A DNA stretch of 64,000 nucleotides from a virus (Duplodnaviria > Caudoviricetes): IMG/VR virus record IMGVR_UViG_2775506835_000007, positions 13,301-77,300 of that record; one strand, 5' to 3'. Positions 36,170 to 64,000 of this stretch are shown piece by piece. The position numbers were made by a program, and so were the translations under genes. The notes below the pieces were generated by a model that searched no databases, was not told where the DNA came from, and saw nothing but the letters and a program-made list of their open reading frames with translations. The stretch's first letter is position 1. The number at the start of each line of letters is the position of its first letter.

Positions 36170-36170
36170 G

Positions 36171-37226: not shown

Positions 37227-37230
37227 GGCA

Positions 37231-37875: not shown

Positions 37876-37885
37876 GTCGATCTCC

Positions 37886-40087: not shown

Positions 40088-40238
40088 CTTCTTCTGGATT
40101 CCATGTCTTTTTCAAAAAAAGCTCTTATCACAGCCTTTTCCCCGGCGGGCAGGTTGTAATAAGAGCCGGGCAGTATATTTTTTTCAGCGAACAGGTAGTA
40201 CATCAGCTGTACTTCCGGGTCTTCCTCTATTTTTTTTT
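40084..40238 (-). CDS. Tail chaperone -1 frameshift extension
   Basis: A9 run before TAG; -1 frame IEEDPEVQLMYYLFAEKNILPG...GEKAVIRAF to TGA. Confidence 0.75.
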
Positions 40239-40610: not shown

Positions 40611-40612
40611 CT

Positions 40613-41044: not shown

Positions 41045-41057
41045 GGTTTATGCCTCC

Positions 41058-42122: not shown

Positions 42123-42126
42123 AGCG

Positions 42127-43062: not shown

Positions 43063-43064
43063 TT

Positions 43065-43658: not shown

Positions 43659-43948
43659 CAGCTATCCTCCTGCAAGGCTCCGGCTTGCAGCTGAGAAATC
43701 AAATTCCGCAGACCGAAACCAAGGTCTTTATCGTTTCCGACCGCCTCCCGGTTGTCGTACCAATGCGAAAACAGCATGCATACCGCCAGTCGATATGCCG
43801 GATTCGCTTCGTTGAGTTCCCTGCTTTTTTGATCGATCGCCTCTGTTATGTACGCTTCAGCTGCATCAAAGATGATTTTTGCGCCATATTCAATCTCCCT
43901 CTGGTCCACCCTTGCATATTTCAAGGCATCTTCCAAAAGCGTTCCCAT
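43658..43948 (-). CDS. Head-tail connector (gp6-like)
   Basis: AAEAYI...LAVCMLFSHWYDNRE. Confidence 0.88.
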   Translation of the reverse strand: MGTLLEDALKYARVDQREIEYGAKIIFDAAEAYITEAIDQKSRELNEANPAYRLAVCMLFSHWYDNREAVGNDKDLGFGLRNLISQLQAGALQEDS

Positions 43949-47127: not shown

Positions 47128-47309
47128 TTATCTCCGCCTCCGATCGGATGGATCGTAAACCAAGCCCCAATCCCTACAAGTTCAATCCCTGCGGCGAGCA
47201 GCCCCAACGGAATGCAAACGCAGAGCGCCGCCGCCGCGATGCAGCACAGCCCTGAGAGGATACATACATCTTCCGTGCTGTCCCGTATTTTATTCCACCA
47301 TTTTTTCAT
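47124..47309 (-). CDS. Small membrane protein between terminase and portal
   Basis: Two hydrophobic segments, usual position. Confidence 0.65.
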   Translation of the reverse strand: MKKWWNKIRDSTEDVCILSGLCCIAAAALCVCIPLGLLAAGIELVGIGAWFTIHPIGGGDK

Positions 47310-49033
47310 TCCAGACCCCACCATTTTTCTAAATCGTATTTCGATATGTCCAGTTTTGGCTTTGTTCCCATTGCCAGCTTGTGTGCGTCGATCGTCGCGT
47401 CGCATGGGTCTATGCGTTTGGAGGCATAATCTTTGCTGAGTTTGATTTCTCCAAAACTGTTTGATACCGTGACCGCGTTTCTAAAACTCCATGCCAGCAG
47501 CGTGTTTTTTCTATCATAGATGATTTTTTTTGCATCTACACAGTTCTTAAAGTGATCCGTTGAATCATTCAGACTGCGCGCCGACTGGTTTATTTCTATC
47601 AAATCACAATGAAATGTATCTTCTAAATCCGGGAGAAACGCCGATGCTCCATGCGGGTCATAGGCAATCCCAAGGATTTCAAGGTTCAAGCGATCTGCCA
47701 ATTCTTTGTAATATCGCAAAATGTATTTGTAATCGGTGATGTACCCGCCGCCGGTTTGTGTCAATGTCAGCAGACCGTCTCTCGCCCATATACGATACGG
47801 CTCCTTGTCGGTTTGTTCGTGTTCCAATAGCCGATTTTCCGGCATGAAAGAATGGGAATCGATAAAAAATTTTCCATTGTCAAGCGGGAAATCCAACGAT
47901 CCGCTGGTCAAGTCCCCGCCGGCAGAGAGGTCCAGTCCCAAATAACAGGCGCGCCCGGCCATGTCGTCGATTGTGGTGTCGCTTGCGCATTCGGTCCACT
48001 TTCTTTCGTTTAAATACCCGTGTTCCGTCGCCTGTACCCATATGTTGAGGTCCTTTGTCATAAAGTTCAGCAGATCGTCTCCGCCTTTTTCTCTGGCTTT
48101 GATCGCGTCCGCGCGCATGCTGATGCATGTTTCCGGCGTCCAAAGTGGGTGCGCCGTCTGCCAAACTTCCTCGTTCCAGATTCGCTCGCCTATGGCGTCT
48201 TCCTGATTTGGTTCCGCGATGAAAACAAAGTGTGTTTCATCTGGAAATCCACTCAGTATGTTCTTTCCGTAGTCATATTCGCTTTTGCATGGGCTGTTCA
48301 AATCAAATCCCGCAGTGGTGATGATGGATACCAAACAGGATTTCAGTTTTTTACACCCATCCGTCAAGAGCTTGTACATCTGGTTGGTTTTGTGCTTATG
48401 GTATTCATCGACGCTTCCAAAGTACGGACGAAAGCCGTCTATGCTGTCCGTATCCCTGCCCAGCGCCTTGATCGTTCCATTTGTCAGGAGACATTCGATT
48501 TCCCCGCGGTATTCTTTGATTTTAAAGAGTTCCCGTTCCAGTTCCTGGTCCGCTTTAATAAACTTTATACACTCTTTCAGGACAATGCGCGCTTGCAGTT
48601 CTTTTGTGGCCGTTGCATAGACCTGCGGGTACTGATAACCGTCAAAATTTCCATAATAAAGGGATGGTATGGCGTTCATCACGCTTTTTCCGTTCTGGCG
48701 GGCAACCTGGATGTACGATGTGCGGAACCGCCTGTTGTTGGTGTCTTTTATCACCCATCCGTTCCAGTTCGCCATAATAAATGCCTGGAAATCCGCTGGC
48801 CGGAACGGCTGCGGATCGTCTCCTTCCGCCAGGATGAGTTGTTCGGAAAATCCGAACATGTGGGCGGCACGTTTTTCAGAATATACGAACGGAAAATCCG
48901 GCGTCCCCTGGCGTTCCAGGTCCTTCAAAAACCGTTGTGCTCCCATGATTTCGCTGCTTCCAACATTTCGATCCAGCGCGTTTTTAACCGCTGCTTCCGC
49001 GTATTTGATTGCTTTATCCACCGGTCGTACCAC
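47306..49033 (-). CDS. Terminase large subunit (cos type)
   Basis: VARQNGKS, VDEYH, ITTAG, GLDLS, YDP, RIDP. Confidence 0.95.
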   Translation of the reverse strand: MVRPVDKAIKYAEAAVKNALDRNVGSSEIMGAQRFLKDLERQGTPDFPFVYSEKRAAHMFGFSEQLILAEGDDPQPFRPADFQAFIMANWNGWVIKDTNNRRFRTSYIQVARQNGKSVMNAIPSLYYGNFDGYQYPQVYATATKELQARIVLKECIKFIKADQELERELFKIKEYRGEIECLLTNGTIKALGRDTDSIDGFRPYFGSVDEYHKHKTNQMYKLLTDGCKKLKSCLVSIITTAGFDLNSPCKSEYDYGKNILSGFPDETHFVFIAEPNQEDAIGERIWNEEVWQTAHPLWTPETCISMRADAIKAREKGGDDLLNFMTKDLNIWVQATEHGYLNERKWTECASDTTIDDMAGRACYLGLDLSAGGDLTSGSLDFPLDNGKFFIDSHSFMPENRLLEHEQTDKEPYRIWARDGLLTLTQTGGGYITDYKYILRYYKELADRLNLEILGIAYDPHGASAFLPDLEDTFHCDLIEINQSARSLNDSTDHFKNCVDAKKIIYDRKNTLLAWSFRNAVTVSNSFGEIKLSKDYASKRIDPCDATIDAHKLAMGTKPKLDISKYDLEKWWGLE

Positions 49034-49490
49034 TCCGATACTGATCCCACTTGCTCTTTGGTTTTTCCGGCTCTTTTGGGATTACCAATTTGCACCGGCT
49101 TGAAATCGTCAGCCCCAAATCGCTTGCCGCAGCCCGGCACTGCTTAAACGCGCGATCCTGCACCGCCGTTACCTTGTCAATCAGCCCGATCATTTCCGGT
49201 TCGCACGGCAATTTGCGCATCATCTTAACGGTCTTGCGATAGTTTTCTTCTGCGATGATGTACCGGGCAAGTGATTCACAGTCCAAGTTCGACATGATCC
49301 CCAGATCGATTAGCTGGGAGGCGATCCGGTTAAATTCATCCTTTTGCCTTTTGATAAGGTACTTCGGCGGCTCCACTGCATCTGCTGGCGCGTGGATTTC
49401 GGCTCTTTCCCGTTCTTCTATTTCGGCTTTTGTAAGGTGCGCTTTTTTCTTTGCCTTCAACAGATCAATCGGTTGTCTTGGGCCTGCCAT
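49014..49490 (-). CDS. Terminase small subunit, P27 family
   Basis: HLTKAEIEER, PPKYL, DLGLTISSRCKL. Confidence 0.92.
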   Translation of the reverse strand: MAGPRQPIDLLKAKKKAHLTKAEIEERERAEIHAPADAVEPPKYLIKRQKDEFNRIASQLIDLGIMSNLDCESLARYIIAEENYRKTVKMMRKLPCEPEMIGLIDKVTAVQDRAFKQCRAAASDLGLTISSRCKLVIPKEPEKPKSKWDQYRSGTTGG

Positions 49491-50096
49491 TTACCCCACC
49501 CCCAGCAATTCGTCAAAAATTCTTTTATAAAAATCATATAGTTCCTCGCTTTTCTCAAAGCTAAATTGTTCGATCTTGGGATTTTCATTAAAATTGCTGG
49601 ACGTTTCAATCACAAATTTTCCTTTGTCGGTGTCCAGCAAAATTACCTTGCTGTGATTTTTGACATACCGGTATTTGATACCGGCGCGCTCGCAAACCTG
49701 TTCAAAATTTTGACTGTACCCGTAGTCCTTGCCTCGTACCTTATTTTCCTTGGCAAGGCCGCTGAGTAAAAATTCCACGTTTTCAATCGCGCCTTTTTTC
49801 TTTAGCGCTACAATCGCATCTAGTTCTTTTTGGCCTACGCGTAAAGTTGTAACCAGCAGGCCGTGGATTACACACTGCGTTGCAATCCACATGACAAGGC
49901 TGCAACTGCTCCATCCACCGGCGGGAGAAATCATTTTGAAAATCTCATTTTCTCGCGGTAAATGATCCAAAAATTTACCCAATTCATATCGTGATAAATA
50001 GAGATCAAAGCAAACATATTGTGCGCCCGCGGACTGCATCAGCAGGTATTTATCGTATTTTCCGGGACCTTTCTTCTTCATCAGCCACCAATCCAA
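49491..50096 (-). CDS. Phospholipase D-superfamily (HKD) protein, probable nuclease
   Basis: HSKVILLD = HxKxxxxD, then TSSNFNENPKIEQ. Confidence 0.75.
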   Translation of the reverse strand: MDWWLMKKKGPGKYDKYLLMQSAGAQYVCFDLYLSRYELGKFLDHLPRENEIFKMISPAGGWSSCSLVMWIATQCVIHGLLVTTLRVGQKELDAIVALKKKGAIENVEFLLSGLAKENKVRGKDYGYSQNFEQVCERAGIKYRYVKNHSKVILLDTDKGKFVIETSSNFNENPKIEQFSFEKSEELYDFYKRIFDELLGVG

Positions 50097-50173
50097 ATTT
50101 CAAATTTTCCGTGGGGAGTTTTTGCGCGGAAAAAGAGGCCTTGCGGTATTGCACCATGCAAGCCGGAACTTTT

Positions 50174-50641
50174 TTACAGCCCCCTACCCCCTCGGAAGTC
50201 GACATTCCAACGCCGTTTTAGCTCTTGTAGCTCGCTTTTTACCCGCATATCTCCGCTGTGCATCCTTTTTTCAATGCGCATGTGCTCCCGGTGAGACAGA
50301 GGCACGAGGTTATCCGGGTCCAGTCTCAAGTCCCAGCGTTCTTTGATCGGCTCGATATGATGTACTTCATCGGCACTTTCTATTGATTCGTTCTTGTAAT
50401 AACTCCACAAGCACAAACCGCTGTAGATCGACATGATTCTTTTCTGCATCGTTTTCCATCCAGCGGATATATAAAACGCATGTTCTCTCGCGTCTCTTTC
50501 AAGCCGCACGGATTGATCATATTGCCTCTGCCTCTCGGACTTCCTTGTTGCCTCTTTGGACTTGTGCTGCTTGCAATATGATTCTCCGTGCTCCACCAAT
50601 TGTAGACAACCAGCATGCCTGCATATTTTTTTAAATGGCAT
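50174..50641 (-). CDS. HNH endonuclease (packaging-associated)
   Basis: FY.SAGW...VHHIEPI...LDPDNLVPL...H. Confidence 0.9.
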   Translation of the reverse strand: MPFKKICRHAGCLQLVEHGESYCKQHKSKEATRKSERQRQYDQSVRLERDAREHAFYISAGWKTMQKRIMSIYSGLCLWSYYKNESIESADEVHHIEPIKERWDLRLDPDNLVPLSHREHMRIEKRMHSGDMRVKSELQELKRRWNVDFRGGRGL

Positions 50642-50689
50642 GTCTTTTGCCTCCAAAAACTTTAAACTTTAGAAATTACGAAAAACCCC

Positions 50690-50718
50690 TTGACTTAATC
50701 ACGATACCGTGATATAAT
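50690..50718 (+). promoter_or_regulatory. TA-operon promoter with palindromic operator
   Basis: TTGACT-17-TATAAT; spacer contains ATCACG-ATAC-CGTGAT. Confidence 0.8.
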
Positions 50719-50745
50719 ATAGTTACAGAAAGGGGGTGAAACAAA

Positions 50746-51000
50746 ATGCCTGTACTCTCAAGGTTTTATGGTTTGGTGGTCAAAATGCTCTTCCTCGGAA
50801 AGGAACACAATCCGCCTCACATCCACGTAATCTATGGCGAATATATCGGAGCGATCGACATACGAACCGGAGAAATGATGGAAGGCGATCTCCCAAACAA
50901 GGCGCTTGCAATGATGCGGGAATGGGTCGGGATGCACCGGGAAGAACTACTGAACATCTGGAACACACAAGAATTTAAGGCACTGCCACCGCTTGAATAA
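50746..51000 (+). CDS. DUF4160-family putative toxin
   Basis: MPVLSRFYG...EHNPPHIH..YG...HREELL..W. Confidence 0.88.
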   Translation: MPVLSRFYGLVVKMLFLGKEHNPPHIHVIYGEYIGAIDIRTGEMMEGDLPNKALAMMREWVGMHREELLNIWNTQEFKALPPLE

Positions 51001-51012
51001 GGAGGAAGCTAT

Positions 51013-51453
51013 ATGTTCCATAAAGTAAAAACTGTGTCCGCATTGCCGGATTATAAAATGCTGGTAGGCTTTGTTTGCGGCACGACCAAGCGGTATGATT
51101 TCAAGCCGCTGTTTGATCGTCACCCTGTGTTCCGGTCCCTATGTGACGTTCCCGGCCTTTTTGCTCTGGCAAAGGTTGACGCCGGAGGGTATGGAGTGTG
51201 CTGGAACGACGACATCGACATAGCCTGCGATGAGCTTTGGGCGAATGGGGAAACGGTCTCGACTCCGTTCGACGGGCTGCTTGCGTTTTCAGACGCCACA
51301 AATATGTGGGGCCTGAACGAAAGCACACTGCGCAAAGCTCTGTCTTATGGAAAGCTAAAGGCGGGTATTGATGCACAGAAATACGGAAAGCAGTGGGTAA
51401 TAACGGAAGCCGCCATGCGGCGCGAATACGGTGATCCTAAGGCGGAGGCGTAA
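51013..51453 (+). CDS. DUF2442-family antitoxin fused to HTH
   Basis: VDAGGYGVCWNDDID; WGLNESTLRKA...KYGKQWVIT. Confidence 0.85.
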   Translation: MFHKVKTVSALPDYKMLVGFVCGTTKRYDFKPLFDRHPVFRSLCDVPGLFALAKVDAGGYGVCWNDDIDIACDELWANGETVSTPFDGLLAFSDATNMWGLNESTLRKALSYGKLKAGIDAQKYGKQWVITEAAMRREYGDPKAEA

Positions 51454-51509
51454 GCTTCCGCCTTTCTTTTTCCGCTGTGCCTCAAAAACACCTTGGCACG
51501 TACTCCCCC

Positions 51510-52271
51510 TCATTTGCTTATGCACTCTTTTAAAATGCGATTTTCTGATATTTTAAAGTACGCTTCATCAAATTCAAAACCGGTATAATTTCGTCCCGAA
51601 TGCATGCAGGCTATAGCTGTAGTTCCGCTCCCCATGCAATTATCAAGGACTAAATCACCCGGATTGGTGTATGTACGGATCAGGTATTCAAATAGGGCGA
51701 CTGGTTTTTGTGTTGGATGTAAACCGCGTTCGCATTTAATGTTTAAAACTTGACGTGGGTAATTGGTTATATATGTGTCTGCTCCATTTTTAAACCCATT
51801 AATACTATAGGCCCAATCGTTATGTCGCGGATTAGAAATACCCTTACGATGTATCTGAGTATCTAGCGTTACAATCCCTTGTGGGTTGTATACAGGCGGG
51901 CGCTTATAAAACACGCAAATCTCTTCGACGCATCGAAGGGGCTGCTTTTTTGCGTTGGCAAAACCAGTTGCCATATTTTTGTTCCAGTACCAACAGTATT
52001 TAAATAGCTTGGACTGGCTGCTAATAAGGCGAGTTGTAAACGGCTGGCAGGCAGTTAAGCATATAGCACCGTTGTCTTTTATAATCCTTTTGTATTGTTT
52101 CCAAAGAGCTTCGAGCGGAAACAACCCATCCCAGCGGCAGTGCGTTATTCCGTATGGCATATCGCACATTATCATGTCGATACTTTTATCTGGATAACGG
52201 CTCATTCCGCTTATGCAGTCTTCGTTAAATATCTTATTTATGTAATCCATCTCTTCTCCTTTCAGCTCCAT
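51510..52271 (-). CDS. DNA amino-methyltransferase (N4-C/N6-A, beta class)
   Basis: DMPYG, HPTQKP, VLDNCMGSGTT. Confidence 0.92.
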   Translation of the reverse strand: MELKGEEMDYINKIFNEDCISGMSRYPDKSIDMIMCDMPYGITHCRWDGLFPLEALWKQYKRIIKDNGAICLTACQPFTTRLISSQSKLFKYCWYWNKNMATGFANAKKQPLRCVEEICVFYKRPPVYNPQGIVTLDTQIHRKGISNPRHNDWAYSINGFKNGADTYITNYPRQVLNIKCERGLHPTQKPVALFEYLIRTYTNPGDLVLDNCMGSGTTAIACMHSGRNYTGFEFDEAYFKISENRILKECISK

Positions 52272-52379
52272 CTATCCCGGATTTTATTTATAGGAGCCTT
52301 TACGGAGATTATCTATAAAAATAGTCATGGCACGTACTCTATGCATCTATCAAACCACAAAAGTACGTGCCAAAAACGG

Positions 52380-52721
52380 CTATTCTATAATTTTTTTCTT
52401 TTGGGCCAGCGCGTGATAAAATCTGCGCCGCTCCTCTCGAAATCCTCTCTCGTATGTCATCAGTCCATGTACAAGCCTAAGATTGTGCCATGGGATGTCC
52501 TGTGTTACATGCAGGATGATGCATTGATAGTCTCGGTCCGATACCTCTACCGCTGTCTGCTCTATCAGCTCACAGTCATGTATCAGCTTTTCTTTCCACT
52601 CTCCGCTGGCCCGTGGTATGTCTCTTTTCTTCTCTTGATACTGCAAACAAAAATTGTGCAGCTCCCGATATGCGTATTTCCCAATTCCATACCGGTCAAG
52701 TTTCACGTCTCGCTTACTCAT
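52380..52721 (-). CDS. Late transcription activator-like protein
   Basis: YRELHNFCLQY...RRRFYHALA; last early gene. Confidence 0.65.
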   Translation of the reverse strand: MSKRDVKLDRYGIGKYAYRELHNFCLQYQEKKRDIPRASGEWKEKLIHDCELIEQTAVEVSDRDYQCIILHVTQDIPWHNLRLVHGLMTYERGFREERRRFYHALAQKKKIIE

Positions 52722-53136
52722 CGCAGACATCCTCTTGCGGCTGATCAAGATAGCGGCGCCAACACTTGACGCATTCGCGCCCTACGGATATGCAGTCCCA
52801 GTCTTTTTTGAGGGGACATGTTTCTGTTTTAGCAAGTTCTTTTGCTATCATGTCCAAATCGTTTTTTACTTTATCACCAATTGTTTGACCGACGATCTGG
52901 ATGTTACGGCTGATCGAGATAGCATAATAAGCGGGAGGTTCTCCGAATACCTCTACCAGATACCTTTCGCGGTCGCTGACTTCTCTCTTTGTGTGGCACT
53001 GCCGCGGCTCAGTGTTTTGCGGCATGTACTGAGACATTGGCCGGTTTTTCGGGATTTTGTTTATGACCGTTCCAACCATTGGTCCGGATCCGGTACTTTT
53101 CCATCTGATCCGCTGGCCGATTTTGATTTCGTTCAT
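52714..53136 (-). CDS. Hypothetical protein (SH3-like N-terminus, Cys cluster)
   Basis: IKIGQRIRW; CP...C..C..CW. Confidence 0.6.
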   Translation of the reverse strand: MNEIKIGQRIRWKSTGSGPMVGTVINKIPKNRPMSQYMPQNTEPRQCHTKREVSDRERYLVEVFGEPPAYYAISISRNIQIVGQTIGDKVKNDLDMIAKELAKTETCPLKKDWDCISVGRECVKCWRRYLDQPQEDVCDE

Positions 53137-53150
53137 GGTTATTTTCCTCC

Positions 53151-53741
53151 TTATTTCATTCTCCGCTGTATATTTTCTTTTTCCGCTGCGATTGCCCGGC
53201 TTGGATTATCTCCCAAGCCTACAAAATCCAAAAACAGCACAGCGTTATTTTTCGTGTCGAATTGCACCTCGTACTGGCGCAGGTCTTGGGCTGTCACGTA
53301 CCGCCGCCCAAATATTCGTTCCATGTCGTTCCAAATGGCCCACGGCACAAAAAAGGTTTGCAGCTTGATCCCGACACAGACACCGGTAGCGGCCCCCATC
53401 TTGTAGTGGCCGGCAAGGGCCTTTGCCTGATGGTCTTTCACTTCCGACTTGTTCATTTTGCTGGTATCGGTGTGCTTGGCCTCAAACCGGATTGCACGGC
53501 CCCCGATCAGGGTCCCGGCAAAGTCCGGCTGCGCGCGGCCTACGAAGTTGCCCACAAACTGCAAGCCCGACAACCGTTTGATGACGTGAAACGGCTCTGG
53601 GACCTTATCGACATCCGCGCGGCCTTGGTCCCGATATTTTTGGCATCCGTTTTTGATACGGTCTTCAAAATACCCGCCTTGGGCGCGGTTGACCCTGCCC
53701 TGCCAGCTTTTGGCGGCGGATTTTCCGCTGTACTGCTTCAT
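53151..53741 (-). CDS. recU: Holliday junction resolvase RecU-like
   Basis: GGYFE, KVPEPF, PDFAG, FEAKHT, HQ. Confidence 0.8.
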   Translation of the reverse strand: MKQYSGKSAAKSWQGRVNRAQGGYFEDRIKNGCQKYRDQGRADVDKVPEPFHVIKRLSGLQFVGNFVGRAQPDFAGTLIGGRAIRFEAKHTDTSKMNKSEVKDHQAKALAGHYKMGAATGVCVGIKLQTFFVPWAIWNDMERIFGRRYVTAQDLRQYEVQFDTKNNAVLFLDFVGLGDNPSRAIAAEKENIQRRMK

Positions 53742-53998
53742 TTTTTTGCCCCGCTTTCCCGGCGGAAGCCGATGAGGTCAGCAATCCCAAAGCTTCCGTT
53801 TTTGCATTCGTGGCCGGTGTAGCTACCATCAAAACCCATGTATTCGTTGTCTTGACCTCGTATAGCGTTCCACATGCAAACTTTAGCTTCGTGTTTCGCA
53901 CAAACCGGTGTTCCATCAAATTCTTTTCCACAGATGCGGCATTTGTAGCGCGGGGTGTATGCCTCCGATGACGAATAGATGAAATTGGTTTTTCCCAT
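53738..53998 (-). CDS. Small Zn-finger protein
   Basis: YKCRICGKEF...HEC...GIADLIGF. Confidence 0.65.
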   Translation of the reverse strand: MGKTNFIYSSSEAYTPRYKCRICGKEFDGTPVCAKHEAKVCMWNAIRGQDNEYMGFDGSYTGHECKNGSFGIADLIGFRRESGAKK

Positions 53999-54002
53999 TA
54001 AA

Positions 54003-54466
54003 TCATCCCTTTGTCCTTTTATTTGTTTTCCTGTTATAGACTACGATCATCGATGGGAAGGGCGCACTATCTTTTTCTTTTCCGTTTTCGTCCGTGAATT
54101 TTAATCTTCCGCGGACAAACCTAATTTCCGCTTTTCCATAAATGTATTTGTGGAAATATGAAGTATCCGTGCGTGCTGGAATTAAAAGAACAATTGTCGT
54201 CCCGCTCTGCGCCTCGTTGTATGATTTTTGAACCCATTTTTCTATTTCTCTTCCGTAGGGTGGGTTGCAAAATACCGCTCCGTCACCCTCCACTTTCCAC
54301 GACGATTTTAACCCATCGGTTTCCGGCGTAAAATATCGCGAACATTTTGCAGTTTTATCTGTGGCCGCTGCATCCAATTTGAAATTAAATTCTTCATTTA
54401 ATTTTTCAAAAAACTTTGAGGCGTACACCAATCCATTTTTTTCGAGCTATGCAAAGCACTGTTCAC
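54003..54466 (-). pseudogene. Phage Dam-like N6-adenine methyltransferase split by a 1-nt frameshift
   Basis: GTG start MNSALHSSKKMDWCTPQ in one frame; FFEKL...LDAAA...NPPY...PARTDT in the -1 frame; T6 run at 54408-54413. Confidence 0.75.
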
Positions 54467-55187
54467 TTTTATTTCTCCTTCTAATTCTTATCATTCGATA
54501 AAACTGATAGGGGATTCCCGTTATGGGATTCACTCCGTTCTCAACCGACTCTAATATAATCCGGTATCCCTTGAGCGGCTGCGGTTCCTTTTTCCACTCT
54601 TTTGCGGAGACTTCCTCTATTTTGGGTTCGACTTTTTTGATGTTCCGCGAGTGAGACCAGCGGCGGCCCGGTATAATCTCGGTCTTATCTGGTGCCGTTT
54701 TGTTTTGATCGATGATGTAATCGGCCAGGGCTGCGAATGCACCATCCATGTACGTCAGGACCGGTCGCACTTGTCCGTAAGGCCATAGCTTTTTGATCTC
54801 TCTCAGGTCGATGTAATTTACGACCGCATGATGGTGGATTCCTCCGCGGGAACCGATCGCTGTTGTGGATATGTAAAATAGCTCTTGCCCGTTTTCAGCA
54901 TACAGTTTCCGCATATCCCGCCAAAATTTTTTCATCTGCTTTTTGGCGGTTTCTGGGTCCGGACGCTCTTCCTTGCGATAGGTAAGAGCGAGAAACCAAT
55001 CATTCGCGGTAAAGTACGTCGTTAGCTGCCGCGTAAGCTCCCGGCGGGCAAGCTTATCGTTGTTCTTCTTGACCGCTTCCGCCGTGGCCGCTGCTTTCGA
55101 CGCGCGTTCTTGGCTCCGGGGGACATAATAGGTTTTTTCGATCTCTATTACCGGTCCTGTCCGGTATGTCTTTTTCCGGTATCCCAT
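54447..55187 (-). CDS. HUH-type rolling-circle replication initiator-like protein (P2)
   Basis: FLALTY, IHHHAVV, LADYII, RRWSHSRNI; homolog of 14012-14797. Confidence 0.75.
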   Translation of the reverse strand: MGYRKKTYRTGPVIEIEKTYYVPRSQERASKAAATAEAVKKNNDKLARRELTRQLTTYFTANDWFLALTYRKEERPDPETAKKQMKKFWRDMRKLYAENGQELFYISTTAIGSRGGIHHHAVVNYIDLREIKKLWPYGQVRPVLTYMDGAFAALADYIIDQNKTAPDKTEIIPGRRWSHSRNIKKVEPKIEEVSAKEWKKEPQPLKGYRIILESVENGVNPITGIPYQFYRMIRIRRRNKSEQCFA

Positions 55188-55279
55188 GGCAGATTTCCCG
55201 TCCTTCTTTTTTGCTTTCCCGGCCTATTATTAATACCTTTACCAAGGGGTCAAAGCCCGGTCTTATGCCGTTTTTTGGC

Positions 55280-55384
55280 TTGCGTATCTGCGGCGCTTAT
55301 GATATAATAAAAGCGCTCAGATATGAGTAAGGTTTCACCCTCTGACGGCTGCCAGGCCTGATAGTCAGAGGGTGATTTTTTGTT
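55280..55384 (+). ncRNA. Putative antisense RNA (about 70 nt) with its promoter, upstream of rep
   Basis: TTGCGT(55280)-17-TATAAT(55303), then hairpin 55335-55375 and T tract. Confidence 0.55.
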
Positions 55385-55395
55385 TTATGGATGGA

Positions 55396-55578
55396 TCATT
55401 TTTGATCATTGTACATGCAGTGCCCGATTCGGTTGTCGTGGATCGAGCAATCGTTATAGCAGTGATCCATGCACACGCGGGCATGATGCACAGGGCAGAT
55501 ACACACTGCGCGCGGCGTGGATTTTCCACAAATCGGGCAAATTGTGTTGACAATTTTGTCCGGTGTGAAGCGGTTCAT
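55396..55578 (-). CDS. Small Cys-rich protein
   Basis: CPICG...VCMDHCYNDC; homolog of 14996-15190. Confidence 0.7.
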   Translation of the reverse strand: MNRFTPDKIVNTICPICGKSTPRAVCICPVHHARVCMDHCYNDCSIHDNRIGHCMYNDQK

Positions 55579-55835
55579 TGCGCTACACCTTTTCTTGGGA
55601 CCTTTTTCTGCGGCCACGCGAGAGTCTGGCACATGGCGCAGTCAACCTTCATCCGCTTTACTAACGGATCATTTGCGCCTTTGCACCCCCGGCAGGGATA
55701 CGGCGTGTGTATGTATGGATTCTTTACGGCTACACCCCGGTGCAGCCTACAGGTTTGCAGCTGCGTGCAGGACGCACACTGGCATGTGTTTTTGCATTCC
55801 GGGTCCGGCCCGCGGCGGGCGTCTTTAGGGTTCAT
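55575..55835 (-). CDS. Small Cys-rich protein
   Basis: CQCASCT...TCRLH...PYPCRGC. Confidence 0.7.
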   Translation of the reverse strand: MNPKDARRGPDPECKNTCQCASCTQLQTCRLHRGVAVKNPYIHTPYPCRGCKGANDPLVKRMKVDCAMCQTLAWPQKKVPRKGVAQ

Positions 55836-55847
55836 GCAGACGGCCTC

Positions 55848-56183
55848 CTATTCCATGTTTTCAATGATCTCGCGTAAGATGTGCGGCGGGATCGTATATG
55901 CCTCTTCGATCAGCTCGTCCCGGTTGATGCGCTCTGTCTCGTGAGCGTTATACGCAAGCGTTTCCCGGTTGAAAATTTTGCGAATAGAACAATCGCTGTC
56001 CAAGTCATAAATGACCATGATTATGAACGTGGCGTTTTCCGGATGGTTAATGATTTCTGCTCGAAATCTTCCCATTGCGAAAATATAGTATCTTTTTTCA
56101 TCTTGTCCGATCGCCTTCATGCTTGAGGCGCTTCCGATTTCCTGCCGCGCAAGGGCTGCAGCGGTCTTTTTTGTGAGTTTCAT
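55848..56183 (-). CDS. Hypothetical protein (P2-specific)
   Basis: Coupled ORF in early operon. Confidence 0.65.
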   Translation of the reverse strand: MKLTKKTAAALARQEIGSASSMKAIGQDEKRYYIFAMGRFRAEIINHPENATFIIMVIYDLDSDCSIRKIFNRETLAYNAHETERINRDELIEEAYTIPPHILREIIENME

Positions 56184-56506
56184 TTTACACTTCTTTCCGG
56201 GCGTGCATATCCTTCCGGGGCATATGGGATAGGCTCTCCCGTGTCTGGATTACACCCTTGTTCGATCAACATCTTTCCAATTTTTTCGCGGACAGCTTGA
56301 TTTACTGATCCCCAATATGTTGTCCATATCATAATGGGATTTTTGGCTATGATCGCATGCGTAAATTCCCAGCCTCCGCCGGAGAGGCGGGAGAAGTCCT
56401 TAATAAACAGGTAATAATCGCCTTTTTGCGCTATTGCAAAATTATTACAATAATGCAATATGCGTGTTGGGACGTTTCCGGGATAGTTAGTATGGGATGT
56501 ACCCAT
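56180..56506 (-). CDS. Conserved hypothetical early protein
   Basis: Homolog of 15488-15793. Confidence 0.75.
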   Translation of the reverse strand: MGTSHTNYPGNVPTRILHYCNNFAIAQKGDYYLFIKDFSRLSGGGWEFTHAIIAKNPIMIWTTYWGSVNQAVREKIGKMLIEQGCNPDTGEPIPYAPEGYARPERSVK

Positions 56507-56798
56507 TTTTCCCCGGCCTCCCTTCGTGCCGTTTTCTGCTGCTGCGGATTTTGTTTGCGATTTCTGCGCCGTGCCCGTTTATCCTTCTTTCTTCCGCACG
56601 GGCATTATACGCTTTTACTCGCTTGCAGCTTTTACGCCATGCACCGTTGCAAGAGGTGTGGGCACGGCAGGTGATGCAGATGTCCGGCGGCGGATCGTGA
56701 TTGACTTTCTTTTCGCTGTGCGCTATATTTGGTTTGGCAATATTTCCTTCGCCGCTGTCAGAGGTCGCAACTCTGGCGGCGGCTTTTTTGCTATGCAT
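56487..56798 (-). CDS. Hypothetical early protein
   Basis: SD and operon packing; Cys cluster. Confidence 0.55.
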   Translation of the reverse strand: MHSKKAAARVATSDSGEGNIAKPNIAHSEKKVNHDPPPDICITCRAHTSCNGAWRKSCKRVKAYNARAEERRINGHGAEIANKIRSSRKRHEGRPGKNGYIPY

Positions 56799-57926
56799 CT
56801 ATATCTCCCCCTTTTTTCTCTTCCTATTGGCAGCCTTTCGTTCTCGCAAAGTCAAATCCGTTTCTAACGATTCTGGTGTCCAACGTACCCCTATGTAATC
56901 CAGCACCTTGCCCCATCCATATACTTCATCAGTAACTGGATCCTTCACACATCGGTACATCCAAAAATCCCATTCTTTCGGATTGTCTTCGTAGAGTCGG
57001 TCGAACCTATGGGGTCTCTTTTCGAGCTGGATCCCAAAACCGCACATGGAACAGCCTGTCCTCTGTGCTCTTGTTGTGTAAAGAGTGCCATCCGCTTGGC
57101 GTTCTATGGTGCCGTATATCTCCGGAACAGGTACTTCCAGGTCAAGGGCAAGCTGCAACAAGTCTTGACGGTCAAATATTGCAAATGGCGCCGACCGTAT
57201 CGCTGTCTTTCCAAAGTAGTTGCATCCATTCATCATAAGCGACTTTTGGCGACGGCCTCCTTCGGACGCCATGAGACCCAGATACGGTACACTGTTGTGT
57301 TCTTTCGCCCAGTCGTCACACGGCTTCTCTTTGAGGTAATAACAACACTTGGCGGATACTTTAAACGGAGCACATTGATATTGCACATCTTCCCGTTCAT
57401 TTTCACCACCTGCAAACAGCTCCAGCCATTTCTGAGCCATCTTCATCCGTGTACCTGTCCGATTCCCACCATACTCTCCGGTTTCTCCTGTGATGATCGC
57501 ATGCCGAACTGTGGCATTCTTCGGAGATGGATTCTGTAGCAGCTCGATCTTCGATGCCGTTTCTTTGGACAGTACAGGGAACCCGCATTCCTGCAAAACT
57601 TGTGTTTTGCTCTTTAATGGTTTCAGCGAGATGACTCCCAATGCTTTATGTATGGCCTGAATACTCTTATCTTCCAGGGTCGATACCGAAACCGCTGGAA
57701 CATCTATTCCAATGGATCGCAAAAACAACAGTAGCGTAATGCTGTCCAGACCGCCTACGGATACATGACAGTTCAGTCCTCGCTTACCACACTCGTTATA
57801 GAACTCCCATGCGCGAGTGTATGCATAGTTTATCTTTGCTTCATACGGTAGTTTCTGTTTTACCCGAAACGACGCAATTTTCTCATCCGTGTGATTCTCC
57901 TTCATTCTCTCCATACAGCTTTTCAT
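56799..57926 (-). CDS. PAPS reductase-like (PP-loop, Fe-S) protein
   Basis: Near-identical to 16365-17480. Confidence 0.85.
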   Translation of the reverse strand: MKSCMERMKENHTDEKIASFRVKQKLPYEAKINYAYTRAWEFYNECGKRGLNCHVSVGGLDSITLLLFLRSIGIDVPAVSVSTLEDKSIQAIHKALGVISLKPLKSKTQVLQECGFPVLSKETASKIELLQNPSPKNATVRHAIITGETGEYGGNRTGTRMKMAQKWLELFAGGENEREDVQYQCAPFKVSAKCCYYLKEKPCDDWAKEHNSVPYLGLMASEGGRRQKSLMMNGCNYFGKTAIRSAPFAIFDRQDLLQLALDLEVPVPEIYGTIERQADGTLYTTRAQRTGCSMCGFGIQLEKRPHRFDRLYEDNPKEWDFWMYRCVKDPVTDEVYGWGKVLDYIGVRWTPESLETDLTLRERKAANRKRKKGEI

Positions 57927-57959
57927 TTTTGTTTCTTCTCAACCTCCGTTTTGTGATTT

Positions 57960-58142
57960 TTACTCACGCATCAACCCGCCGATCCCCATGGCCAGGCTCT
58001 CGATCGTGCCGAGCGCCCACACCTGCCAGATGGTCAGCATGCCGCTGTCCGACGCCATCGCTGTGAGGAATCCACCAACCAGGCCGACGACAAACAGGAT
58101 CACACCCAGTCGGCTGTGCTTTATGTAAGGTTGATCATTCAT
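57960..58142 (-). CDS. Small two-TM membrane protein
   Basis: Homolog of 17477-17698. Confidence 0.7.
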   Translation of the reverse strand: MNDQPYIKHSRLGVILFVVGLVGGFLTAMASDSGMLTIWQVWALGTIESLAMGIGGLMRE

Positions 58143-58389
58143 TTTGTTCGCCTCCCAGCAGCCAATCAACCGATACACCAAGGACTTCCGCAAAGGCTTT
58201 CAGCTCAAAGTCCATAACGTACCGGTTCTGGCCTTCGATTTTGGACAGGCCGGAGGCGTTCATTTCAATTCCCTTTACTTGGATCTGGGCCAAAAGGTCT
58301 TTTTGCTTCATGTCCAGTCTTTCGCGGGCCAGCGTGATGCGTGCTCCGGTGCAATTCCGGTTTCCCATCGGTTTTTCTCTCCGTCTCAT
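58135..58389 (-). CDS. XRE-family HTH regulator
   Basis: GNRNCTGARI...SGLSKIEGQNRYVMDFEL. Confidence 0.85.
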   Translation of the reverse strand: MRRREKPMGNRNCTGARITLARERLDMKQKDLLAQIQVKGIEMNASGLSKIEGQNRYVMDFELKAFAEVLGVSVDWLLGGEQNE

Positions 58390-58438
58390 TTGTTTACCTT
58401 CTTTCGTTTTTTTAATGTCAGTTTTATATAGATGTGTT

Positions 58439-58723
58439 TTACCTACGACATGCGTCCTCGTACACCTTTGCGTGCAGGTCGAGCATCCCGGTGATAAAGG
58501 CACCGGTCACACGACTCATTTCGGTCTGCCCCTGCCATGCGGCGACCTCCGCAGGTGTCAACTTGTGCGCCGTCAAGGACGAGACGCCGCACCATGCATC
58601 GCTCGGGCGGATGCCATACTCCCGGCAGTAGAGGCGCTTCGCCTGCCCGCCGGATGTGGCCCAGACGTGGAGCTTCCGATCGCTATAGCTCGTCACGAGA
58701 TACAGATTTTCCGTTCTTTCCAT
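58439..58723 (-). CDS. Hypothetical early protein
   Basis: SD plus ATG, 94 aa. Confidence 0.65.
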   Translation of the reverse strand: MERTENLYLVTSYSDRKLHVWATSGGQAKRLYCREYGIRPSDAWCGVSSLTAHKLTPAEVAAWQGQTEMSRVTGAFITGMLDLHAKVYEDACRR

Positions 58724-58748
58724 TTCCTCACCTTCTTTTGGCGTTTCC

Positions 58749-59288
58749 TTAATCGATTGACACGGCGACCGGATCGTAGATGCGCATGCGCCGTCTCAAC
58801 TCTCCGCCGTCAAGGTCTCCGTCTTTGGTGTGGTCAAAGCTGTCGATGGTGACCGCGATATATGCGCGGCACTCTGCGACCAGGTGCGGAGGGAGAGTTC
58901 CAACAACCACACGCCCGCGAATATCTTCCGGGGACACATTTCCGGTTAACACGGATGCCGAGGGATAGCAATCCCTTAACACCTTGATCGTGCCAGGATG
59001 CCGGGATACAATCAAGTTTACGGTCGCATCAGGCACACGGGATGCAGACACATGATTGACAGCCAGATCAGCATTAGCAATGTCGGCGGCGGTTGTGTAC
59101 TGTGCTCCGCGCGGAAAGACCGGAGCGTAGTAGTCGCTTACGCCCATATTGATCATCGCTGATGGAGACAACGTAGATACCACGATTTCCGGTCCACCCG
59201 GATTAGACAGAGCGGCGAACGATACGATTGCGCCGAATCCGTAAGCAACGATATGGTTTGTTTTCGCAATTTCATTAAGTTTTTTCAT
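58749..59288 (-). CDS. Csx16-like (CARF-related ring nuclease) domain protein
   Basis: LIVSRHPGT...VSPEDIRG.VVVGTLPPHLVAEC...GDL matches the remembered Csx16/Cas_VVA1548 pattern. Confidence 0.75.
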   Translation of the reverse strand: MKKLNEIAKTNHIVAYGFGAIVSFAALSNPGGPEIVVSTLSPSAMINMGVSDYYAPVFPRGAQYTTAADIANADLAVNHVSASRVPDATVNLIVSRHPGTIKVLRDCYPSASVLTGNVSPEDIRGRVVVGTLPPHLVAECRAYIAVTIDSFDHTKDGDLDGGELRRRMRIYDPVAVSID

Positions 59289-59524
59289 TTTTTGTTCCCT
59301 CTTTTCAATTTTTTCAATTTTTTTACGGTCATTCCGCTGACCATTTCAATGGTATCTTTGTACCCCTGCTGATACCATTTACAATTGGGCATGTAATCCG
59401 CCCCTCCCGTATATCCGGAGTGAAGTCCGAAAAGGGCATTGTTGACGCCCATCAGATAATTGTAATTGTCTTCGTCCGTGTTGGGCCTCACCAGGTTTTC
59501 CATGACTCTTTTCCAAGTGTCCAT
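59285..59524 (-). CDS. Hypothetical early protein
   Basis: Coupled to the Csx16-like gene; WYQQGYKD. Confidence 0.6.
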   Translation of the reverse strand: MDTWKRVMENLVRPNTDEDNYNYLMGVNNALFGLHSGYTGGADYMPNCKWYQQGYKDTIEMVSGMTVKKLKKLKRGNKK

Positions 59525-59538
59525 TTTTTCACTTCCTC

Positions 59539-59718
59539 TCAATTTTTAGAATTATCTGTCTGCCCTGCCGCCCTTCTTTTTTTGATGCTGTCTATGTATC
59601 CGGCAGGGTCGCCGTTGGTCAAAAAGCTTATTGCAGTACGGACGATCCCGTCTATGTCTACCGGCTGGTTGTCCCTGATGATCTTTACCGCGCGCCCGTT
59701 GCATTCCATGATTTTCAC
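59539..59718 (-). CDS. Small hypothetical protein
   Basis: GAGAGG SD; (VKI)MECNGRAVKIIRDNQPVDIDGIVR... Confidence 0.5.
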   Translation of the reverse strand: MKIMECNGRAVKIIRDNQPVDIDGIVRTAISFLTNGDPAGYIDSIKKRRAAGQTDNSKN

Positions 59719-59820
59719 TTCCTCTCTTTGCTATGATGCGTATTTTTCTATTTTGTTGAATTTTGTCATTGTAAGAAAATTTATATGATGGTAAAATATA
59801 AACGAATTGGAGGGAAAATA

Positions 59821-60735
59821 ATGTCTACCACAAACAGAGAATTTAAAGGTAAAAGTTTGCTACAGTGTGTCGATAGCTATGTTGTTGTTGATATAGAAAC
59901 TACGGGCCTAGACCCAAAATATGACGAAATCATCGAAATTGGCGCAATAAGAATAAAGAACCAAACTCCAATTTCAAGTTTTAATTCGTTAGTGCGTCCG
60001 TATTTCCCGATTAGTGACTTCATAACGACCTTGACAGGCATTACGAATGAAATGCTATCTTCTGCTCCTTCTTTCGAGGACGTTGCACCTTCGTTTTTAA
60101 GTTTTGTTGAAGATTCTATTATCGTTGGGCACAATGTCAATTTTGATATTAATTTTCTTTATGATTGTTGTATGCGTGATATAGGTGTTCTATTGGATAA
60201 TAATTTCATTGATACGTTGAGGCTGTCTCGCAGGATTATTCCGGGACTTCCAAACTACAAATTAGATACTCTTGCAAACGCCTTTGATTTGACTGTTTCG
60301 ACCAAGCATCGCGCGTTGGCAGATTGTGATACAACTCACCGGTGCTACGAACATTTAAAACAATATGTACATAAAAACCACATTGATTTAGAGGTGCTGT
60401 GTTTAGGCTTTTCCCGGACAAAAGCGAGAGAGATTAATACCTGTAAAATATATTTTGACGAGTCTCATATTCTGTATCAAAAGGTCTGTGTTTTTACAGG
60501 AGCGCTTGATCGGTTTACACGAAAAGAAGCAATGCAGGCAGTTGTGGATGCAGGCGGGATTTGCGGCGACTCTATAAATAGGCATACCAATTTTCTGGTT
60601 GTAGGAAATTTAAGTTATTGCAAAAGTATTCACGACGGCAAAAGTGGCAAGATGAAAAAAGCAGAAGAATACATATTGAAGGGGTATGATTTGCAAATCA
60701 TATCAGAATCCGTATTTTATGACATGTTGGGGTGA
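59821..60735 (+). CDS. DEDDh 3'-5' exonuclease (DnaQ-like) with C-terminal BRCT domain
   Basis: VVDIETTGL, GHNVNFD, HRALAD; VCVFTGAL...TNFLVVG...ISESVF. Confidence 0.9.
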   Translation: MSTTNREFKGKSLLQCVDSYVVVDIETTGLDPKYDEIIEIGAIRIKNQTPISSFNSLVRPYFPISDFITTLTGITNEMLSSAPSFEDVAPSFLSFVEDSIIVGHNVNFDINFLYDCCMRDIGVLLDNNFIDTLRLSRRIIPGLPNYKLDTLANAFDLTVSTKHRALADCDTTHRCYEHLKQYVHKNHIDLEVLCLGFSRTKAREINTCKIYFDESHILYQKVCVFTGALDRFTRKEAMQAVVDAGGICGDSINRHTNFLVVGNLSYCKSIHDGKSGKMKKAEEYILKGYDLQIISESVFYDMLG

Positions 60736-61256
60736 TTGAAATGTATGACTATGATTTTGTTCAAAGGCTAAACGATATAATGTCAGATGATTTAAACCAA
60801 ACATGCAGATTTGAATTATGCGAAAACGTTGGCGCTGAAAATAGTATTTTAATCCACGTCGAACCATCGGCTTTTCGTTCTTCGACGACTAAAAACATTC
60901 TTTACGCGAGAATAAAATCTAATGGTAATTTTAAATATGTGAGTTTCCCTTCCAAATTCAAAAATCTGTTTGAAAACGAGGGTGTAAAAGTCACACAAAT
61001 TAAATCGCAATTGGATTTTTGTCGTATAAATCTTGATGAACTATCCGAAAAACTAACGATGCTTTATCCAATTTTGAAAAAAATATTTACTGCTTCTTTT
61101 TGCTTTTCGGATTTTGGATGCTGTAGCAAATGTGTGGATTGTAGTGATCAAATGAAATGTATCCATCCGGATTTAATCTACGCCACGGCATGTCAATATC
61201 GTAAAAACCTAGAAAATGGACGTGTTTTTTATGGACACAATAGAAATATCGATTGA
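60732..61256 (+). CDS. Hypothetical partner with Cys-rich C-terminus
   Basis: FGCCSKCVDCSD..KCIHP...ACQYRKNLE.GRVFYG; overlapping start/stop. Confidence 0.75.
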   Translation: MIEMYDYDFVQRLNDIMSDDLNQTCRFELCENVGAENSILIHVEPSAFRSSTTKNILYARIKSNGNFKYVSFPSKFKNLFENEGVKVTQIKSQLDFCRINLDELSEKLTMLYPILKKIFTASFCFSDFGCCSKCVDCSDQMKCIHPDLIYATACQYRKNLENGRVFYGHNRNID

Positions 61257-61260
61257 TCTC

Positions 61261-61287
61261 GCCGCCCCCTTACAGGGGCGGCTTTTT
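61261..61287 (+). terminator. Intrinsic terminator between moron and cro
   Basis: GCCGCCCCC-TTAC-AGGGGCGGC-TTTTT. Confidence 0.75.
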
Positions 61288-61502
61288 CATGCGGGTTTTT
61301 GGAATGTATCCTGATTAAATAAATACGTCCAAGAATATTCTGGGAGCAGATCGAAGCAGGTTGCCCAAACTTCCGGTAACGTAAACGGAGTTTGACCACT
61401 TAACTTGTTTTGTACGGTTTTCTCTGTAACCCCCAGAACCGCTGCATATGCTTTCATGGAGATTTTTTTGTTTTCAAGTGCGTTTCTTAAATTATCAAAC
61501 AC
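61287..61502 (-). CDS. Cro-like HTH regulator (P2)
   Basis: FDNLRNAL...LGVTEKTVQNKLSG.TPFT...YLF. Confidence 0.85.
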   Translation of the reverse strand: MFDNLRNALENKKISMKAYAAVLGVTEKTVQNKLSGQTPFTLPEVWATCFDLLPEYSWTYLFNQDTFQKPA

Positions 61503-61523
61503 TTTGTGTCCCTCTCTTTCGAA

Positions 61524-61641
61524 TTACGATGCATCGTATCTGTTGTTAATATTATATACGATGCATTGTAATAAGTCAATACTATTTTTACAATGCATCG
61601 TAATTATTTTCTTGACTTGTAGCCGATATAACGTTACAATG
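61524..61641. promoter_or_regulatory. cro/CI switch with three palindromic operators
   Basis: TACRATGCATYGTA at about 61525, 61557 and 61589; divergent TTGACT promoters. Confidence 0.82.
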
Positions 61642-61670
61642 TAATAGAGCTTATGAAAGGATTTGATAAA

Positions 61671-62201
61671 ATGAATTTTTTAGAAAAACTAGATAATCTA
61701 ATTGCAGAAAAAGGAATAAACAAAAGCGTACTGTCAAAAGAAAGCGGTATTCCATATACAACAATTGACGCATTTTATAAAAAGGGATACCAAAATGCAA
61801 AATTACCTACGATTCAAAAGTTGTGCGAATATTTTGATGTTACTTTAGATTATCTAGTGCGTGATGACGTTAATGATTATCATTATGGTAAACAGGAAAA
61901 ATACGATCCGAATTATATTAAACAAAATAGAGCCTATTCAATTGACATAAATGATGAAATAGGTAAAAAAAAATCCCCCGCCCCTGAAGAGCCAGAGGCG
62001 GAGGACGAAGGCCGGGATGAACTCGGTATCCCGCGGCAGGCGTATGACCTATTTTATCGATTTTTGGTTGAGCGCGGATATGTACTCAAAGGCGATGATG
62101 TTACCGCTGTCCAGGCTGACTTTTTCGCCGGGCTTGTCCAGATGGTCAACGCGGCTTTCCCTGCCCGACCGGTACAGGTCCAAAAAGACAAGGCTGTCTG
62201 A
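61671..62201 (+). CDS. CI-like repressor (P2), no S24 peptidase domain
   Basis: LSKESGIPYTTI...KLCEYFDVTLDYL; C-terminus homologous to P1 CI. Confidence 0.87.
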   Translation: MNFLEKLDNLIAEKGINKSVLSKESGIPYTTIDAFYKKGYQNAKLPTIQKLCEYFDVTLDYLVRDDVNDYHYGKQEKYDPNYIKQNRAYSIDINDEIGKKKSPAPEEPEAEDEGRDELGIPRQAYDLFYRFLVERGYVLKGDDVTAVQADFFAGLVQMVNAAFPARPVQVQKDKAV

Positions 62202-62279
62202 CTCTTTGTGCTGCTTTCTGCGCACGGCGTTTTGGATAATCCTTATAGAGCTTTCCGGGCAAATACAATTTTTATCCAT
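62049..62279 (-). CDS. Putative small antisense ORF overlapping CI 3' end (P2)
   Basis: GGGGAG SD plus ATG at 62279; mirrors P1. Confidence 0.35.
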   Translation of the reverse strand: MDKNCICPESSIRIIQNAVRRKQHKESDSLVFLDLYRSGRESRVDHLDKPGEKVSLDSGNIIAFEYISALNQKSIK

Positions 62280-62437
62280 TTTATACACTCCCCATTATTA
62301 TATAGTTGAGGGCTTATCCCCTCCCCCCCTCTATATAACACTGGGCCGTCGCATTTGACTTTTGTTCCATAATTTTGATTGGTATTTTTTAGAAATATAG
62401 TTTGATTGTACAAATAATAGAAAGTGAGGCGTTTTAA

Positions 62438-64000
<1,563 letters not shown>

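Follow-up and report, generated by a model that had tools for sequence, protein, structure and literature searches.

What is a gene bearing the signature of a CRISPR-associated ring nuclease doing in the early operon of a prophage? The question arises from a 64,000-nucleotide stretch of a viral record (IMG/VR record IMGVR_UViG_2775506835_000007, positions 13,301 to 77,300; hereafter the window), in which a gene on the minus strand at 58749-59288 encodes a protein of 179 amino acids (aa). A previous inspection of this DNA, which we refer to as the sequence-only reading, had put the protein forward as a Csx16-like ring nuclease, possibly a single-chain pseudo-dimer, and as a candidate type III anti-CRISPR. 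Ring nucleases settle whether type III CRISPR signalling ends in the recovery or the death of the cell, and phage copies of such enzymes constitute a proven anti-CRISPR route. Our analysis reveals a protein with an intact Csx16 domain in its C-terminal half and, in all likelihood, a decayed second copy of that domain in its N-terminal half. This makes it a plausible phage counter-defence gene, and we give the whole chain of reasoning that leads to a phage-borne double Csx16 acting as a ring-nuclease anti-CRISPR a somewhat better than even chance of holding.

The open reading frame (ORF) runs from an ATG to a stop codon, and both its limits and the residues quoted in the sequence-only reading were recovered exactly. 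Its parts, with the evidence for each, are as follows.

58749..59288, minus strand: gene for the two-domain Csx16-like protein, 179 aa, stop codon included (ORF list and sequence).
59025..59288, minus strand: N-terminal domain, residues 1-88, probable degenerate Csx16 copy without SRH (hhalign, shuffles, tandem alignment, conservation counts).
58749..59024, minus strand: C-terminal domain, residues 89-179, intact Csx16 (PF09652; Pfam, PADLOC, hhalign, ESM Atlas).
58998..59006, minus strand: codons S95-R96-H97, the loop that follows strand 1 in the C-terminal domain, presumed to be catalytic (family alignment).
58881..58901, minus strand: codons G130-T-L-P-P-H-L136, second Csx16 signature (conservation counts).

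The assignment of the C-terminal half to Csx16, as first proposed from its motifs, is borne out by database models and by profile comparison. Residues 93-148 match the Pfam family PF09652 (Cas_VVA1548, Csx16) with an expectation value (E) of 7.6e-6 and 26.5 bits (curated cut-off 25), and the PADLOC model of Csx16 matches the protein with an E of 1.7e-6. Aligned with hhalign to 31-33 single-domain Csx16 proteins, the profile of this half yields a probability of 99.9% over 90 columns, with the SRH and GxLPxHL motifs in register, and in the ESM Atlas residues 89-179 fall on a 95-aa Csx16 cluster with a template modelling (TM) score of 0.82. The names of the two motifs are taken from our own alignments, not from a published conserved-residue figure, and the catalytic role of S95-R96-H97 is presumed from the family. 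Apart from PF09652, the Pfam scan of the protein at E <= 10 returned two chance-level families and no match to DUF1874. For SAVED (PF18145), there was no Pfam match in the protein and no PDB fold match by Foldseek.

The protein belongs to a sizeable family. Searching a 90%-cluster database identified 22 homologues at E <= 1e-3 among 168 candidates, with 40-67% identity over their full length, and a profile built from these 22 retrieved 405 proteins at E <= 1e-3 (of which 62 reach E <= 1e-30) from a library of 1.84 billion 50%-identity representatives. Separate hidden Markov models (HMMs) for residues 1-88 and 89-179, run over 171 retrieved proteins, divided these into four groups. Both halves are present in 78 proteins (about 80 clusters at 50% identity), which are the members counted below. 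Ordinary single-domain Csx16 proteins, of ~93-141 aa, are matched by the C-half HMM only, with the match starting at residue 2-30; a tandem group of 13 proteins, of ~190-360 aa, shows two C-half matches in a row; and a few proteins or fragments have the N-terminal half alone. Of the 78 two-domain members, 77 have S or T at position 95, 61 have R96 and 76 have H97; G130 is invariant (78/78), L132 and P133 are each found in 77, and R167 in 75.

The nature of residues 1-88, which have no Pfam match, is less immediate. This half is conserved in its own right: of the 78 members, K3 is kept in 67, N5 in 62, G17 in 73, F18 in 75, A20 in 75, S38 in 66, T39 in 64, Y53 in 71, P56 in 67, R60 in 73 and A73 in 74, with L4, L40 and D74 as further conserved residues. 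Its profile aligns by hhalign to that of 31 clean single-domain Csx16 proteins with a probability of 62.5% (E 7e-5), and to that of 57 Csx16 domains (the 31 single domains plus 26 tandem halves) with a probability of 88.2%, an E of 3e-6 and a score of 35.5, pairing residues 33-89 with Csx16 columns 42-100. Reversed profiles score 9.9 and 11.3, and none of 200 five-column block shuffles reaches 35.5, be it among the 100 of the Csx16 profile (mean 13.2, maximum 22.6) or the 100 of the N-half profile (mean 12.3, maximum 22.3). The full two-domain profile aligns to the 13 tandem proteins in a single collinear alignment of 169 columns with a probability of 99.2%, a score that comes mostly from the C-terminal half.

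Structure prediction points in the same direction. The AlphaFold2 (AF2) model of the protein has a predicted local distance difference test score of 94.3 and a predicted TM score of 0.83, and the order of strands and helices is equal in both halves, with an offset of 90-100 residues. The predicted N-half elements are strand 2-3, helix 4-10, strand 12-16, helix 19-27, strand 34-38, helix 42-47, strand 52-56, helix 67-73 and strand 76-84; those of the C half are strand 92-94, helix 98-107, strand 112-114, helix 120-123, strand 127-130, helix 134-137, strand 142-148, helix 161-167 and strands 168-178. In the ESM Atlas, residues 12-87 have their closest structure in a viral PF09652 cluster (TM 0.45 over 68 residues), a value below the bar of the service that we use as a lead only. 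Taking the profile alignments, the shuffles, the collinearity with the tandem proteins and the structural model together, we consider it highly probable that residues 1-88 are a degenerate Csx16 copy derived from an old internal duplication.

This conclusion preserves the internal duplication of the sequence-only reading and amends the evidence offered for it, which consisted of two echoes between the halves. The pairing of IVVSTLSPS with VVVGTLPPH is recovered by profile-profile alignment, and that of HIVAYGFGAI with LIVSRHPGTI is not. The N-terminal half starts (M-K-K-L-N) at roughly the position that the SRH loop occupies in a Csx16 domain, and HIVAY corresponds, according to the profile alignments and the predicted secondary structure, to the second strand of that half. 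The first echo was therefore rejected as off by one strand-helix unit, being mis-registered because the N-terminal copy has no SRH.

Paired Csx16 domains are found beyond this family. In several of the 13 tandem Csx16-Csx16 fusions (P0101, P0103, P0106, P0114, P0115, P0118, P0119, P0128, P0129, P0131, P0137, P0162 and P0165) one copy lacks SRH or the LPxH histidine, so that degenerate halves recur in the family. In the main texts of the papers on Csx16 or VVA1548 that were searched, we found no description of tandem or two-domain Csx16. Some 30 members of the two-domain family bear C-terminal extensions of 60-260 aa that are hypervariable and mutually dissimilar; those of the eight two-domain proteins scanned have no Pfam match, and the extensions do not correspond to the neighbouring small ORFs (BLAST E > 0.1). 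Other N-terminal modules also accompany Csx16 domains; as judged by eye, P0121, for instance, carries an excisionase-like helix-turn-helix (HTH) and P0135 a Cys-rich segment. In P0091-P0096 and P0111 more divergent N-terminal domains keep a Y-x-P-x-x-P-R-like motif.

The mechanism that we favour can be outlined from these elements. The double Csx16 would descend from an ancient tandem duplication of a ~90-aa Csx16 ring-nuclease domain. Its C-terminal copy retains S-R-H and G-x-L-P-x-H-L, and the N-terminal copy would have lost the SRH loop, although its surface is strongly conserved in its own right. The two halves of one chain would then build the binding pocket for which ordinary Csx16 needs two subunits; we infer such an intramolecular pseudo-dimer from the duplication, from the confident two-domain model and from the equivalent placing of the conserved loops. 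The protein would bind the cyclic oligoadenylate (cOA) made by the Cas10 of a type III CRISPR system, the single catalytic C-terminal copy would cut it, and cOA-activated effectors would in this way be kept off during phage replication. By analogy with the family, cOA binding and cleavage and the resulting CRISPR inhibition are expected of the double Csx16, with cyclic tetra-adenylate (cA4) as the substrate by family default.

The carrier of the gene is a Clostridia-type tailed prophage, and the gene is part of its early operon. A serine integrase, CI/Cro-like regulators and structural modules identified in PHROGs scans support the prophage origin assumed from the outset. The surrounding P2-specific early genes invoked in the sequence-only reading, by contrast, have no counterpart here: nothing in the region is P2-like, and a P2-like prophage is ruled out by the serine recombinase, the CI/Cro-like regulators and a large terminase subunit (TerL) at most 50% identical to those of Clostridium phages. 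The relevant features are listed below.

27785..64000: carrier prophage, left boundary provisional (PHROGs scans).
62438-64000, plus strand: large serine recombinase (integrase).
61653-62201: CI-like repressor.
61551-61640: promoter-like pair.
61287-61502, minus strand: Cro-like gene, divergent from the CI-like gene, with an 11/12 promoter-like site.
59285..59542, minus strand: upstream 85-aa ORF whose TGA overlaps the ATG of the Csx16-like gene (ATGA), without family match.
59296..59301, minus strand: Shine-Dalgarno-like GAGGGA, 7 nt 5' of that ATG (read from the sequence).
58439..58723, minus strand: downstream 94-aa ORF of the same operon, without family match.

Because its ATG overlaps the upstream TGA, the gene is a member of a tightly packed operon, and the overlap suggests translational coupling to the 85-aa ORF. 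The run of small minus-strand ORFs to which it belongs is followed by genes for a phosphoadenosine phosphosulfate (PAPS)-reductase-like protein, a replication initiator, a resolvase, a methyltransferase, the small terminase subunit TerS, TerL, portal, capsid, tape measure and tail fibre, likewise on the minus strand. A plus-strand cassette of low GC content (about 36%) at 59785-61282 separates the Cro-like gene from the early operon. It encodes a 316-aa DEDDh exonuclease-BRCT fusion, matching the cas-associated DEDDh model and the candidate system PDC-S48 of PADLOC, and a 174-aa Cys-rich ORF without family, and a GC hairpin of 8 bp forms the terminator at its end. At 16365-17480, another PAPS-reductase-like gene (PHROG 424), paralogous in kind to that at 56799-57926, adjoins long minus-strand ORFs (ORFs 1432-12267), which hints at a further phage-like region within the window's left third.

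Homologues of the protein occur in 11 IMG/VR viral loci and in at least three genome loci. That of Clostridium phage phiCs5676-1 is 49% identical and occupies the first 180 aa of a 342-aa coding sequence, and gp42 of the lytic Bacillus phage Shbh1, annotated 'CRISPR related domain', is 44% identical and lies 4 kb from an Ocr-like gene. The 122 ORFs that adjoin homologues in 12 loci belong most commonly to Cro/C1 HTH, holin, lysin, integrase/recombinase, ArdA, HU inhibitor and Ltp families, and no cas family figures among the best 25 of the 46 families matched. The same holds for the window, where, as the sequence-only reading had it, there is neither a Cas1, Cas10 or RAMP match nor a repeat array in the 64 kb; a complete type I-C locus, which bears the only Cas1 of the host, begins ~25 kb past its end.

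Whether the host has a type III system for such a protein to act upon was a check proposed at the outset, and the genome (3.51 Mb, 99.9% complete) contains one type III-A locus, on contig 11 and hence not on the contig of the prophage. Its Cas10/Csm1 (490 bits) has a GGDD motif, an HD motif is not evident in its N terminus, and the locus further comprises Csm2-5, Cas6, a 245-aa NucC (PADLOC E 2.2e-72) and two arrays of 12 and 5 spacers. Because Cas10 keeps GGDD, we judge the system from its sequence to be cyclase-competent. The locus has no Cas1 of its own and lies directly behind a plus-strand phage module with TerL, portal, major capsid, BppU baseplate and Amidase_2 endolysin genes (G000:C11:488085-522827; L028 4086-12123, L009 1506-19828); arrays with the same 33-nt repeat flank it on both sides and a GH25 lysozyme gene follows it, so that it looks prophage-borne or prophage-flanked. 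Within the type III array, spacers 2 and 3 (C11:519235-519339) are identical, the repeat-spacer unit being duplicated. Elsewhere on this contig, a nine-copy array at C11:24667-25203 has a distinct 30-nt repeat and spacers of 36-38 nt, with no cas gene identified for it, and roughly 2 kb away from it lies a match (30 of 34 bases, C11:22380-22413) to spacer 5 of the C11:488085 type III array.

The presence of NucC in this locus raises the question of ring size. NucC responds to cyclic tri-adenylate (cA3). Such a response is also implied in PMC12409355, where the tested Csx16 is described as leaving cA3 uncut even at 10 uM. A canonical cA4 specificity would therefore be of no help against the NucC-coupled system of this host, and, since the host NucC answers to cA3 and the tested Csx16 to cA4 and not cA3, there are two options: the gene owes its shape to other hosts, or its lineage differs in specificity.

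The second of these options leads to the best placed of the alternative explanations, which we nevertheless regard as unlikely: the asymmetric pocket would recognise cA3, and perhaps trinucleotides of cyclic-oligonucleotide-based anti-phage signalling systems (CBASS), instead of or besides cA4, and would neutralise NucC-type effectors. It draws on NucC being the type III-A effector of the host, with no match to SMODS, SAVED, Cas_APE2256 or Csx1 elsewhere in that genome, a weak blank for SAVED and Cas_APE2256 in that the searches for these two matched no control genome either. NucC is moreover rare in the family of the host, occurring in two of 400 other genomes, and one of the three other genomes with a two-domain homologue also carries it. 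In that genome (G402, homologue locus L024), a full-length NucC (E 1.4e-78) overlaps the start of a Cas10-palm gene by 4 nt (L026 1465-3323), a co-presence that is suggestive only; the palm gene reads AGDD instead of GGDD. SAVED domains are reportedly fused CARF-like pairs in which asymmetry permits cA3 recognition, a precedent in favour of such re-tuning. According to PMC12409355, ring nucleases for signals beyond cA4 may await discovery; the same paper, however, describes the tested Csx16 as strictly cA4-specific. The remaining two carrier genomes (G401 and G403) have neither NucC nor a Cas10 palm, and the defence under which the gene was shaped may be that of a host other than the present one of the prophage. 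We deem quite unlikely the more specific proposal that the decayed N-terminal copy reads an asymmetric signal and that the double Csx16, as a ring nuclease directed at cA3 or broad in specificity, disarms NucC in a prophage-versus-prophage conflict with the second prophage on contig 11.

Improbable, in our judgement, is a target outside CRISPR, such as RNA ends, nucleotides with a 2',3'-cyclic phosphate or cyclic nucleotides of another kind, or else a role in damping type III autoimmunity of the host in the lysogen. The two carrier genomes that lack Cas10 and NucC would be accommodated by this explanation, as would the fact that no spacer targets the prophage, and the hypervariable C-terminal extensions hint at varied partners. 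Yet cA4 cleavage is the only biochemical activity known for the family (PMC12409355), and the gene sits on the lytic-strand early operon, apart from CI and the integrase. Very improbable is a sponge that binds cOA without turnover or with very slow catalysis, as the loss of SRH in one half, the variability of H135 and the first description of Csx15 as a good cA4 binder and poor nuclease (PMC13148439) might suggest, given that position 95 and H97 are retained as expected for catalysis and that the large cOA output of type III systems is argued, in the same paper, to defeat sponging.

The preferred reading, a cOA-cleaving anti-CRISPR with a one-chain pocket, must itself be set against several results that weigh on the other side. 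Within the protein, the N-terminal half aligns only weakly to the C-terminal half of its own family (6% by hhalign over 24 columns, in the STLSP/GTLPPH stretch), the HMM of neither half matches the other at an independent E < 0.01 in any of the 171 retrieved proteins, and support for the N-terminal half arises solely via the broader Csx16 profiles. H135 is present in just 46 of the 78 members and R96 varies as noted above; scans of the protein with NCBIfam and PHROGs gave no match; and a CARF or ring-nuclease fold finds no counterpart among solved structures, a Foldseek search of the whole model against PDB and BFVD yielding nothing at E <= 1e-3 and just weak Rossmann-like methyltransferases, which is as expected if no Csx16 structure has been deposited. 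In the host, NucC is the only recognised cOA effector and the tested Csx16 does not cut its activator; none of the 42 spacers in six arrays matches the prophage, so that the self-targeting signal of an active anti-CRISPR is absent; and the gene occurs in none of 400 other genomes sampled in the family of the host.

Csx16 ring-nuclease activity, confirmed only in 2025, and the occurrence of Csx16 in two phage genomes are already reported in PMC12409355, and in this respect the idea is less new than the sequence-only reading assumed. What emerges here is a distinct, well-conserved two-domain Csx16 (~80 clusters at 50% identity) that is spread through phages and prophages of the Bacillota and that probably arose by internal duplication followed by the loss of one catalytic loop, with fused Csx16 pairs bearing one decayed copy recurring independently. 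Such a protein would illustrate, compactly and in nature, how a CARF-like dimer turns into a single-chain sensor, the transition presumed to have given rise to SAVED domains. It is likewise a candidate for asking whether this transition alters ring-size specificity, a question that the NucC of the host makes concrete for cA3.

Comparison with known ring nucleases helps to place the protein. Anti-CRISPRs are encoded by viruses or other mobile elements, and the present gene is found in a prophage, in phages and in IMG/VR viral loci; viral ring nucleases are stated to function as anti-CRISPRs in PMC13148439 and PMC12751052. The closest reference is Csx16 itself (PF09652). In Hoikkala et al. 2025 (PMC12409355), Csx16 and Csx20 are cA4 ring nucleases in vitro, Csx16 is modelled as a dimer and is present in 2 of 28,114 phage genomes. 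The C-terminal half of our protein is a full Csx16 domain with SRH and GxLPxHL, and it presumably shares the metal-independent phosphodiesterase chemistry of that family. Canonical Csx16, however, consists of one domain of ~93-141 aa among the proteins retrieved, lies beside type III cas genes and acts as a symmetric homodimer, whereas the 179-aa protein carries an extra, probably degenerate N-terminal copy, lies in a prophage early operon with the type III-A locus on another contig, and presumably builds its pocket, with a single active site, within one chain. With the tandem Csx16-Csx16 proteins it shares two Csx16 domains per chain, one often decayed, in collinear arrangement; in those, both copies are matched by the Csx16 HMM, whereas the N-terminal copy of the present family is seen by profile-profile comparison only and forms a conserved subfamily of its own.

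The classic viral ring nuclease, AcrIII-1/Crn2 (DUF1874), belongs to another Pfam family, and AcrIII-1 is a symmetric homodimer. AcrIII-2 (SAVED), as described in PMC12751052, resembles our protein in being viral and in having a single-chain CARF-like pair as its sensor, and it degrades cA4; it differs in sandwiching cA4 between two molecules, and the present protein derives from Csx16 and not from CalpL. With SAVED domains at large the resemblance is one of architecture only. Finally, phage and plasmid orthologues of Crn4 (PMC12830947) and the broad-specificity Csx15 (bioRxiv 10.64898/2026.10.26.761840) have folds or families unrelated to that of the double Csx16; for them, several ring sizes including cA3 have been proposed or shown, and their mobile-element copies are likewise proposed to act as anti-CRISPRs.

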